Source: Escherichia phage vB_EcoM_DE17
Sequence record: OP595146.1
Strand: one strand, 5' to 3'
DNA: 64,000 bases
In this document: one piece after another, positions 2,314-2,932 of the stretch
How positions within the stretch are numbered: position 1 is the first letter of the stretch
Layout of the letters: the number at the start of each line of letters is the position of its first letter
The notes under the pieces: generated by a model
The model's database searches: none
What the model was told of the DNA's origin: nothing
The model's input: only the letters and a program-made list of their open reading frames with translations
Made by a program: the position numbers and the translations under genes

Positions 2314-2932
2314 TGGTATGCCTCTTATAAGACCTCTTAAAAGGCTTTTAAGATAAAAGATAGATATCCAGAAAGATATCTGTTTAAATAGCCTTTTTAG
2401 AGGAACCTTTTAAGTTATCTTCTAAGTATTTATAAGCCTACACCTTGTCAAGTCCTTTGTCAACAACTTTTTTAACTTGCAATAGTTCTTGACTTGTTGT
2501 ATGGATTACTGTACCATCTTACTTAAAGCTGTAGGTCTGCCTTGTTCTACAAAGGAGACTTAATGAGAAAATCAAACAACCCGAAGAAAGGTAAAAATAC
2601 CAATCACTGTAAGGAATCAAAAAGGGTAGAGTTACTCTACTATTCATCCTCTGAAATTGGTCTGTACCTGTTCTTTCAAAATTACAGAAGACAAGAGGAT
2701 TATCTATGTGTAGTTCCCAATTAGAAATCGCAGATATTATAGATTTATATAAAACTGCAAAGAGTCATGGCTATATAACCTCAATTGGAAAGAATAGTCA
2801 CTACGATGCTTTGACTGGAATGTATTTCAGGGCAATGGCTCAATCTAGTGAACAACACTTAATGGTTTCTTCCAGTGAGTTTACTTCGTTTCTCTATTGC
2901 AGCAAAATCATAAATCGCAGGAGAACTGAAAA

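Follow-up and report, generated by a model that had tools for sequence, protein, structure and literature searches.

Felix O1 is a classical phage of diagnostics and biocontrol. The paper describing its genome notes a repeated intergenic cassette, treats the temporal control of transcription as not known, and reports no sequence common to both of the regions from which genes diverge. For the genome ends of Felix O1-like phages, PhageTerm analyses together with Bal31 and run-off evidence give terminal repeats of 581 to 608 bp. In UAB_Phi87, the experimentally determined direct terminal repeat (DTR) measures 608 bp. Here we consider a stretch of 64,000 nucleotides from Escherichia phage vB_EcoM_DE17 (OP595146.1), hereafter called the window, and a short word that recurs in three of its non-coding regions. 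This motif is CTT[AT][AT]AAG (CTTWWAAG), an 8-bp pseudo-palindrome that includes the near-palindromic words CTTTTAAG and CTTATAAG. Two of the three regions lie between divergent genes (div1, beginning at 2314, and div2, beginning at 47945), and the third is a long gap at 10.2-11.8 kb. Sequence matches assign all three to Felix O1-like myoviruses (Felixounavirus, Ounavirinae), with best identities of 99.5% (1900-3000), 100% (47700-48400), and 92% (10100-11900). By the gene numbers of Felix O1, div1 corresponds to the 40/41 divergence and div2 to the 96/97 divergence beside the DNA polymerase gene, and the 10.2-11.8 kb gap is flanked by the convergent open reading frames (ORFs) ORF24 and ORF23.

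CTTWWAAG is a real, sequence-specific 8-bp word. The three regions together span 2.1 kb and hold 16 copies, compared with 1.0 expected from dinucleotide-preserving shuffles of each region separately; none of 2000 shuffles reached the observed number. Because the shuffles were made region by region and still gave so few copies, AT-richness is not the cause of the excess. The copies are located where an earlier, sequence-only reading of this DNA had put them: four in div1, four in div2, and eight in the 10.2-11.8 kb region (10627, 11141, 11162, 11172, 11240, 11413, 11434, and 11503). An even spread at the frequency expected from AT content, which would have spoken against a shared element, is not what the counts show. 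Rather, the motif clusters strongly in non-coding DNA, where 23 of the 45 copies in the window fall within the 10.6% of the sequence that a crude gene map leaves as non-coding (p = 1.5e-11). Expressed per kilobase, the density is 16 in div1, 17.6 in div2, 4.8 in the 10.2-11.8 kb region, 1.5 in other intergenic DNA, and 0.38 in coding DNA, which amounts to about 40 times the gene density in the divergent regions and about 12 times in the region of the genome ends.

The enrichment is also specific to the exact word and its spacing. When the pattern CTT-N(0-7)-AAG was examined, the 2-base spacing alone was enriched in non-coding DNA. Likewise, one-mismatch variants of CTTWWAAG show no enrichment except for CTTATAAG and CTGTTAAG, and the latter is a member of another repeat class. 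The reported recurrence of CTTTTAAG and CTTATAAG is well supported for the first of these words, which occurs 29 times in the window versus 5.8 expected (0 of 100 shuffles), but not for the second on its own, whose four copies (1.6 expected window-wide) are not a significant excess, although all four are non-coding.

The copies in the two divergent regions are arranged on the same plan. Position range 2314-2932 had been described as a divergent region as a whole. Its first part, up to 2562, is indeed intergenic and contains the motif cluster, but 2563-2939 is occupied by two conserved ORFs that are annotated in the relatives SUSP1 and SPARTY (Table 1). Within div1, the second and third copies pair up as a perfect palindrome of 19 bp, TCTTAAAAG-G-CTTTTAAGA, at 2335-2353, and the four copies together with a central stem-loop (AGATATC-N6-GATATCT, 2362-2381) create an imperfect palindrome of approximately 90 bp. 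The div2 copies comprise CTTTTAAG at 47953, 48040, and 48086 and the palindromic CTTTAAAG at 48009, and the longer dyad there encloses a 15-bp perfect palindrome, AGCTTTTTAAAAGCT, at 48015-48029. In both of the perfect dyads, the centres of the half-sites are separated by about one helical turn. In each region, furthermore, the leftward gene has a Shine-Dalgarno sequence that is overlapped by the first motif copy. For the DUF5681 gene, which adjoins div1, the upstream minus-strand sequence is CTTATAAGAGGcataccaATG, and the corresponding overlap in div2 is CTTAAAAGAGGcttacATG. In the cross-genus alignment, the div1 Shine-Dalgarno sequence is conserved while the central bases of the overlapping motif copy vary. 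A terminator scan found no terminator-like site on the motif copies of div1 or div2, and these copies have no G+C stem or T tail.

A second sequence is shared by the two divergent regions. The 22-mer CCTTGTCAAGTnnnTTGTCAAC has three matches in the window with three or fewer mismatches, against 0.04 expected, and the two exact matches are those in div1 and div2. The minus strand of this module presents two perfect TTGACA -35 hexamers located 12 bp apart, its plus strand in div1 presents a TTGTCA -35 hexamer, and a promoter is annotated at the div1 position in phage ASO1B. Both regions also carry AACCTTTTAAGT about 30 bp to the left of the module. In each case, the motif cluster is situated between the module and the first leftward gene, such that the copies are 30-140 bp from the module and all on its leftward side, where the promoters themselves are consensus predictions. 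The -10 element of the leftward div1 promoter could be TAGGCT, which has a 17-bp spacer and is our reading, or AATACT, as in the ASO1B annotation. The predicted promoter hexamers (2457-2517, with the leftward TTGACA hexamers at 2446-2463) have zero overlap with the CTTWWAAG copies (2324-2414). The suggestion that the motif is a shared promoter element was therefore not borne out, since CTTWWAAG is neither a -35 nor a -10 element; the promoter-like element that the regions share is CCTTGTCAAGTnnnTTGTCAAC. Two other promoter candidates were set aside, namely a T4-type late promoter (TATAAATA, minus strand 2436-2429) that is not conserved in SUSP1, and a MotA-box-like sequence in div2 (TGCTTTTTA) with the wrong spacing.

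Across the genera Felixounavirus, Suspvirus, and Mooglevirus, the intergenic DNA of div1 and div2 is better conserved than the flanking genes. Alignment columns 47-270 of div1 are almost invariant and div2 has a mean identity of 87%, compared with 78-85% for flanking DNA across Suspvirus and Mooglevirus. No hidden ORF was found in div1 or div2 that would account for this conservation. The 19-bp palindrome at 2335-2353 is invariant in the three-genus alignment, and it is the sole block of div1 that can still be aligned with Erwinia phage phiEa104 of the genus Kolesnikvirus (local score 38 versus a null maximum of 28). The phiEa104 genome contains 19 copies of CTTWWAAG, four of which are in its two divergent regions, which have a combined length of 884 bp (1% of the whole sequence; p = 4e-5). 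Thus, the link between CTTWWAAG and divergent regions is reproduced in a distant genus. An exact-pattern scan of viral contigs for the palindrome, taken as 18 bp, returned mostly contigs of Ounavirinae size, and a few matches in contigs of other lengths were assumed to be chance.

We tentatively favor the explanation, with a confidence that stops slightly short of even, that the div1 and div2 elements are sequence-specific operator-type sites for a DNA-binding regulator at divergent promoters. We prefer it because the exact word is specifically enriched, its copies form dyads, these dyads are positioned beside the shared module, and the arrangement recurs across genera. According to this proposal, the copies would build dyads of 19 bp and about 90 bp in div1 and of 15 bp and 55 bp in div2, and a dimeric or multimeric protein that binds double-stranded DNA would occupy them to set the activity of the divergent promoters. 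The putative regulator might be encoded by the phage or might be a host factor conserved in enterobacteria. In both divergent regions, the first copy is at the same time a component of the leftward gene's ribosome-binding site. Both strands of div1 fold more stably than shuffles (z -3.3 and -3.05), and because the two strands fold equally well, the symmetry is a property of the DNA. The proposal of the sequence-only reading that a shared promoter or operator element is present survives in part. Its operator half is consistent with the concentration of copies in non-coding DNA, with dyads near promoter-like hexamers, with the conservation of the intergenic DNA, with the recurrence in phiEa104, and with the two candidate DNA-binding proteins that the phage encodes (the XRE-type protein and the basic DUF5681 protein beside div1), but several copies have ordinary explanations in terminators or Shine-Dalgarno sequences.

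A number of observations weigh against operator-type sites. Although the perfect palindrome is kept in three genera and in the Erwinia phage, conservation extends over the whole 220-bp region, so it does not single out the motif. In Mooglevirus, two of the four div2 copies have changed to CTATTAAG or CTGTTAAG. The 8-bp core is short for a classical helix-turn-helix (HTH) operator, and no information content was found in the bases flanking the copies; paired copies alone reach a dyad of 15-19 bp. The order of half-sites within the dyads is opposite in the two regions (AAAAG-G-CTTTT in div1 versus CTTTT-T-AAAAG in div2), and the spacing from copy to copy is not a constant multiple of the helical turn. 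If the div1 promoters are real, then most or all copies would reside in the leftward leader, 80-200 bp upstream of the rightward starts, and if the leftward promoters of both regions are rightly placed, then most or all copies would be transcribed, which would make a role at the RNA level equally compatible with their positions. The searchable literature yielded no binding results and no start-site or RNA-seq results on Felix O1-like phages. Finally, no homologue of one phage-encoded candidate, an XRE/Cro-type HTH protein, was detected in Erwinia phages, though the motif is kept there.

That XRE protein is present in 260 Felixounavirus, Suspvirus, and Mooglevirus records, and its absence from the Erwinia phages weakens it as a universal binder. 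Among host factors, the sites did not fit the consensus sequences of Fis and IHF when compared by eye.

The alternative that fares best, although we consider it unlikely, is that the motif acts in RNA. The copies might form the arms of leader hairpins in leftward transcripts, and in any antisense readthrough, that direct RNase III processing or stability or that exert translational control near the Shine-Dalgarno sequence, which the first copy overlaps. The predicted leftward promoters (TTGACA-17-TAGGCT in div1 and TTGACA-18-TAATCT in div2) would place all copies in leaders of 115-160 nt, and ACTTAAAAGGTT would be found at about +12 to +21 in both. These leader hairpins are more stable than shuffles (z -3.3 for div1 and -2.4 for div2), and four genomes retain the structure, with one compensatory pair among them. 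However, the opposite strands give folds just as stable, a repeated self-complementary word yields hairpins automatically, and the single compensatory pair is the only covariation in a div1 hairpin region that is nearly invariant. Moreover, the leader of the Erwinia phage shows no significant structure (z -0.5), and its motif pair is apparently upstream of the leftward promoter. When the whole window and the three regions were compared with Rfam, tRNAs alone passed the gathering threshold, and sub-threshold hits were at chance level.

The 10.2-11.8 kb region differs from the divergent regions in its setting. It is flanked by terminators and bears the DTR, rather than being the promoter region that had been suggested. 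The record for phage D4 contains an exact 581-bp repeat at both ends that maps to 10775-11376, the equivalent of this segment is annotated as a DTR in Pr103Blw, and the records of many relatives start or end there. Because these records and the published PhageTerm and Bal31 evidence agree, the region very probably holds the physical genome ends, with the placement in vB_EcoM_DE17 taken from relatives rather than from reads. The region as a whole is about 85% conserved in a nine-genome alignment. Its composition changes sharply along its length, such that the strand shifts from C-rich to G-rich near 11250-11450, with GC skew of -0.2 to -0.57 at 10250-11250 and of +0.3 to +0.67 at 11550-11800. 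The oriented motifs likewise flip near the right DTR end. In addition, the plus strand has two copies of CCTCCTTAAT (10200-10209 and 10302-10311), which is identical to the 3′ tail of 16S rRNA (anti-Shine-Dalgarno), and the first is within the terminator hairpin. The opposite strand of these copies would constitute strong ribosome-binding sites with no ORF behind them.

CTTWWAAG does not fill this region, as had been claimed. The dominant repeats are instead CTTAACA/TGTTAAG (16 copies) and CTAACAAG (8 copies), neither of which occurs in div1 and which are all but missing from div2, and the terminator-type k-mers AGCCCC/GGGGCT are also enriched. Within the DTR, the spacing of CTT and of TTAA is periodic, at 10.25-10.5 bp (0 of 200 shuffles). 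We therefore think that the copies here belong to a different feature from those in div1 and div2, namely helically phased arrays that most likely serve terminase or replication as cis elements at the genome ends. Consistent with packaging repeats associated with DTRs, the arrays are located at the genome ends and consist of phased short units. Perhaps the CTTAACAGnnT arrays, and the TGTTAAG arrays of phiEa104, could be signals for terminase or replication. The comparison with phiEa104 is informative in this regard. Its terminal non-coding region (1.43 kb, 16472-17900) has one CTTWWAAG, 11 copies of TTCTAA[AG], and 12 copies of TGTTAAG with the same left-right polarity, whereas its divergent regions retain CTTWWAAG. 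Because the terminal region of this phage uses other words, the terminal arrays evolve separately from the divergent-region elements, and it is doubtful that one element is common to all three regions.

It is nevertheless conceivable, although quite improbable in our estimation, that a single phage protein recognizes CTTNTAAG-type units in all three regions, which is the strongest version of the sequence-only reading; an example would be the DUF5681 protein acting at the DTR arrays and at its own control region. In both Felixounavirus and Mooglevirus, all three regions are enriched for one and the same word, and local similarity between the divergent regions and the DTR flank exceeds that of shuffled sequences (scores of 38 and 34 versus maxima of 33 and 31). 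The TTTACGTAACTTTTAAGCCCCT tandem repeat just outside the DTR, for instance, is identical to div2 positions 47947-47970 at 22 of 24 bases. The DUF5681 gene adjoins div1 in all genera compared, and its product has an invariant basic N-terminal motif, GNPxGRPKG. Distant homologues overlap the start of the large-terminase gene in two unrelated phage contigs, and a third context is compatible. Since these homologues are encoded directly upstream of, or overlap, the large-terminase gene, they occupy the position of a small terminase, and the DUF5681 protein is a candidate DNA-binding or small-terminase-like protein. Set against a common binder are the scarcity of CTTWWAAG in the phiEa104 terminal region while the divergent regions of that phage keep it, the separation of div2 from the DUF5681 gene, and the lack in div1 of CTTAACA, the dominant word of the terminal repeat. 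Furthermore, searches with the DUF5681 protein found no PDB sequence match, no named homologues, and no known function, and its structure model is of low confidence (predicted local distance difference test, pLDDT, 67) and matches no known fold.

As a more specific version, which is a long shot, one might speculate that DUF5681 is the small terminase of Felix O1-like phages and binds CTTNTAAG-type units through GNPxGRPKG both at the DTR arrays and at the dyad upstream of its own gene, thereby coupling packaging-site recognition to the divergent promoters. If this is true, then the preferred central base would co-evolve between genera, being T/A in Felixounavirus and C in the terminal arrays of the Erwinia phages.

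We also considered it very improbable that the copies have no shared function. They might be a by-product of A/T tracts beside the G+C stems of terminators, of AU-rich contexts for ribosome binding, and of tandem duplication of 10-12-bp units. The seven other intergenic copies of CTTWWAAG are in keeping with this, as they belong to terminator hairpins or overlap ribosome-binding sites: five are in or beside hairpins, and the remaining two (13139 and 54138) are in promoter-proximal leaders. At 22584, 28889, and 60877 a G+C hairpin is followed by a T run, those at 16851 and 42363 are in or beside hairpins, and one such hairpin reads GGGGCTTTTAAGCCCC. On the basis of this placement in hairpins and leaders, these copies match the repeated intergenic cassette of Felix O1. 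The overlap of the first copy of each divergent region with a Shine-Dalgarno sequence, the parallel enrichment of AGCCCC/GGGGCT at 10.2-11.8 kb, and the resemblance of adjacent motif copies to tandem duplicates are all in keeping with a by-product. However, local dinucleotide shuffles give 1 copy where 16 are observed, the exact word and spacing alone are enriched, and neither G+C stems nor T tails are seen at the copies of the two divergent regions and the terminal region. Cross-genus conservation, and the independent recurrence of the divergent-region association in the Erwinia phage, also speak against an absence of function.

Intrinsic curvature, whereby phased A/T tracts would bend the DNA upstream of promoters and at genome ends with no specific protein, is the least probable alternative and is not supported. 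In its favor are the 10.25-10.5-bp periodicity inside the terminal repeat and a wedge-model profile with local maxima at 2390, 11396, and 48159 that reach the 99th percentile or higher. However, the mean curvature that the model predicts for all five regions (18-20 degrees) equals that of the window (17.4 degrees), AA/TT periodicity is not significant in any region, and curvature would need no exact 8-mer, whereas only the exact word is enriched.

The features discussed above are compiled in Table 1.

Table 1. Coordinates of the divergent-region and genome-end features, and of associated genes, in the vB_EcoM_DE17 window
Feature	Position	Strand	Basis
DUF5681 protein gene; first leftward gene, adjoins div1	1942-2313	-	Pfam match
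div1 intergenic region, bounded by the start codon of the leftward DUF5681 gene (2313-2311) and the first rightward small ORF (ATG 2563)	2314-2562		ORF list, direct reading
AAGAGG (plus-strand 2321-2326), Shine-Dalgarno sequence for the leftward DUF5681 gene; overlaps motif copy 1	2321-2331	-	Direct reading
div1 motif cluster: CTTATAAG (2324-2331), CTTAAAAG (2336-2343), CTTTTAAG (2345-2352), CTTTTAAG (2407-2414)	2324-2414		
Shared promoter module, copy 1, CCTTGTCAAGTCCTTTGTCAAC	2443-2464		Window pattern match
Candidate second rightward promoter, TTGTCA-18-AATAGT	2457-2486	+	Consensus scan
Predicted rightward sigma-70-like promoter, TTGACT-17-TACCAT	2489-2517	+	Consensus match; invariant across genera
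Two small conserved ORFs, 2563-2724 (PHROG 8138) and 2706-2939 (PHROG 5064)	2563-2939	+	Full-length PHROG matches
Non-coding region of 1.67 kb between convergent terminators (plus-strand 10195-10220, minus-strand 11814-11794)	10187-11852		
Homologue of the exact DTR of about 0.6 kb (probable physical genome ends)	10775-11376		End repeats of relatives
CTTAACAGnnT array at the inner side of the left DTR end; about ten units of 11 bp	10826-10977	+	CTT and TTAA periodicity
Phased CTCTTWWAAG-type array inside the DTR, period 10-12 bp; copies at 11141, 11162, 11172	11127-11185		
Inverted array at the inner side of the right DTR end; three units of 11 bp, ATTGTTAAGAA	11341-11371	-	Inverted pairs I1-I3, I10, I12, I14
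22-bp unit TTTACGTAACTTTTAAGCCCCT, 2.8 copies, immediately outside the right DTR end; contains CTTWWAAG	11382-11441	+	
div2 intergenic region, from the leftward 140-amino-acid gene (start 47944) to the DNA polymerase gene (likely start 48202)	47945-48201		Conserved across genera
div2 imperfect palindrome of 55 bp; 27-nt arms, 78% complementary	48006-48060		Invariant in cross-genus alignment
Shared promoter module, copy 2, CCTTGTCAAGTACATTGTCAAC	48121-48142		Window pattern match, alignment
XRE/Cro-type HTH protein, candidate regulator; rightward operon after the DNA ligase gene	54931-55230	+	Pfam HTH_3, E = 6e-10

Several observations concern the surroundings of these features. The right boundary of div2 depends on the start codon of the DNA polymerase ORF, whose earliest in-frame ATG is at 48172; the start at 48202 has a good Shine-Dalgarno sequence (GAGGGAG) and is the one annotated in relatives. 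To the left of the DUF5681 gene, a DUF2828/DUF7788/VWA protein is encoded just upstream of the genes for tRNA-Glu and tRNA-Pro (positions 445-1860 and 119-280, minus strand). Its PHROG label is "RNA-binding protein", and a similarly placed gene just upstream of the tRNA genes of Bas63 is named Ro60-like in the preprint on that phage. Eleven small genes at 12113-17649 on the minus strand have almost the same cassette at their translation starts, (C)CTAAACT(A)GGAGATTC(A/T)AAAATG, which constitutes a repeated intergenic module. A hairpin of the GGGGA...TCCCC type precedes 6 of these 11 genes (12.1-17.6 kb), and a related copy of the cassette is present at 42332. Among database records, GU169904 (Staphylococcus phage SA1) contains Felix O1-like DNA with 97-98% identity, and MG969406 (GE_vB_B3), a 109-kb Salmonella phage record, has the terminal-repeat region twice. 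Both of these records look like chimeric or concatenated assemblies.

We found no description in the searchable literature of the CTTWWAAG word or of the shared promoter module. The concrete cis elements described here are the shared back-to-back promoter module, the conserved palindromes built from an 8-bp word at both divergences, and the phased arrays mapped at the DTR. These should be useful for promoter mapping, for engineering reporter or therapeutic Felix O1-like phages, and for tracking down the regulator and the small terminase. Although real and somewhat useful as groundwork, the finding is not surprising in kind.

Operators of lambdoid phages and of XRE-type regulators, such as lambda OR between PRM and PR, offer the closest parallel to the divergent-region elements. 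These are also dyads of 15-19 bp that occur in several copies beside back-to-back promoters, and vB_EcoM_DE17 does encode an XRE HTH protein. In contrast, the present phage is virulent, and its putative sites have an 8-bp core with uninformative flanks. Furthermore, the copies are leftward of both promoters and do not overlap the hexamers, and the order of half-sites differs between div1 and div2. Rho-independent terminators resemble five of the seven other intergenic copies, which are in or beside hairpins with G+C stems, three of them followed by a T run, but neither a G+C stem nor a T tail accompanies the copies of the divergent regions and the terminal region.

For the 10.2-11.8 kb region, the most similar known arrangement is the concatemer junction of T7-group phages, where an exact DTR of a few hundred base pairs also resides in a gene-free region rich in short words. 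The words differ, however, and here the arrays occur both inside and outside the repeat, with 11-bp phasing and opposite orientation at the two ends. Felix O1-like phages are also myoviruses without a phage RNA polymerase. Packaging (pac) sites such as the pacL and pacR boxes of SPP1 likewise have short repeated boxes near the start of packaging, and the candidate small-terminase-like protein DUF5681 is encoded in this phage. Unlike SPP1, packaging here involves an exact DTR rather than a headful mechanism, and the boxes are putative recognition sites. Iterons, as in the lambda origin and in plasmid oriV, are comparable to the arrays, which are direct repeats with helical phasing in a conserved region free of genes, near a switch in strand composition. 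However, neither an adjacent initiator gene nor an AT-rich unwinding element was identified in this region, and the coincidence of the arrays with the genome ends favors packaging. No closer family membership can be claimed on these comparisons than that the divergent-region elements resemble operators and the terminal arrays resemble concatemer junctions or pac sites.

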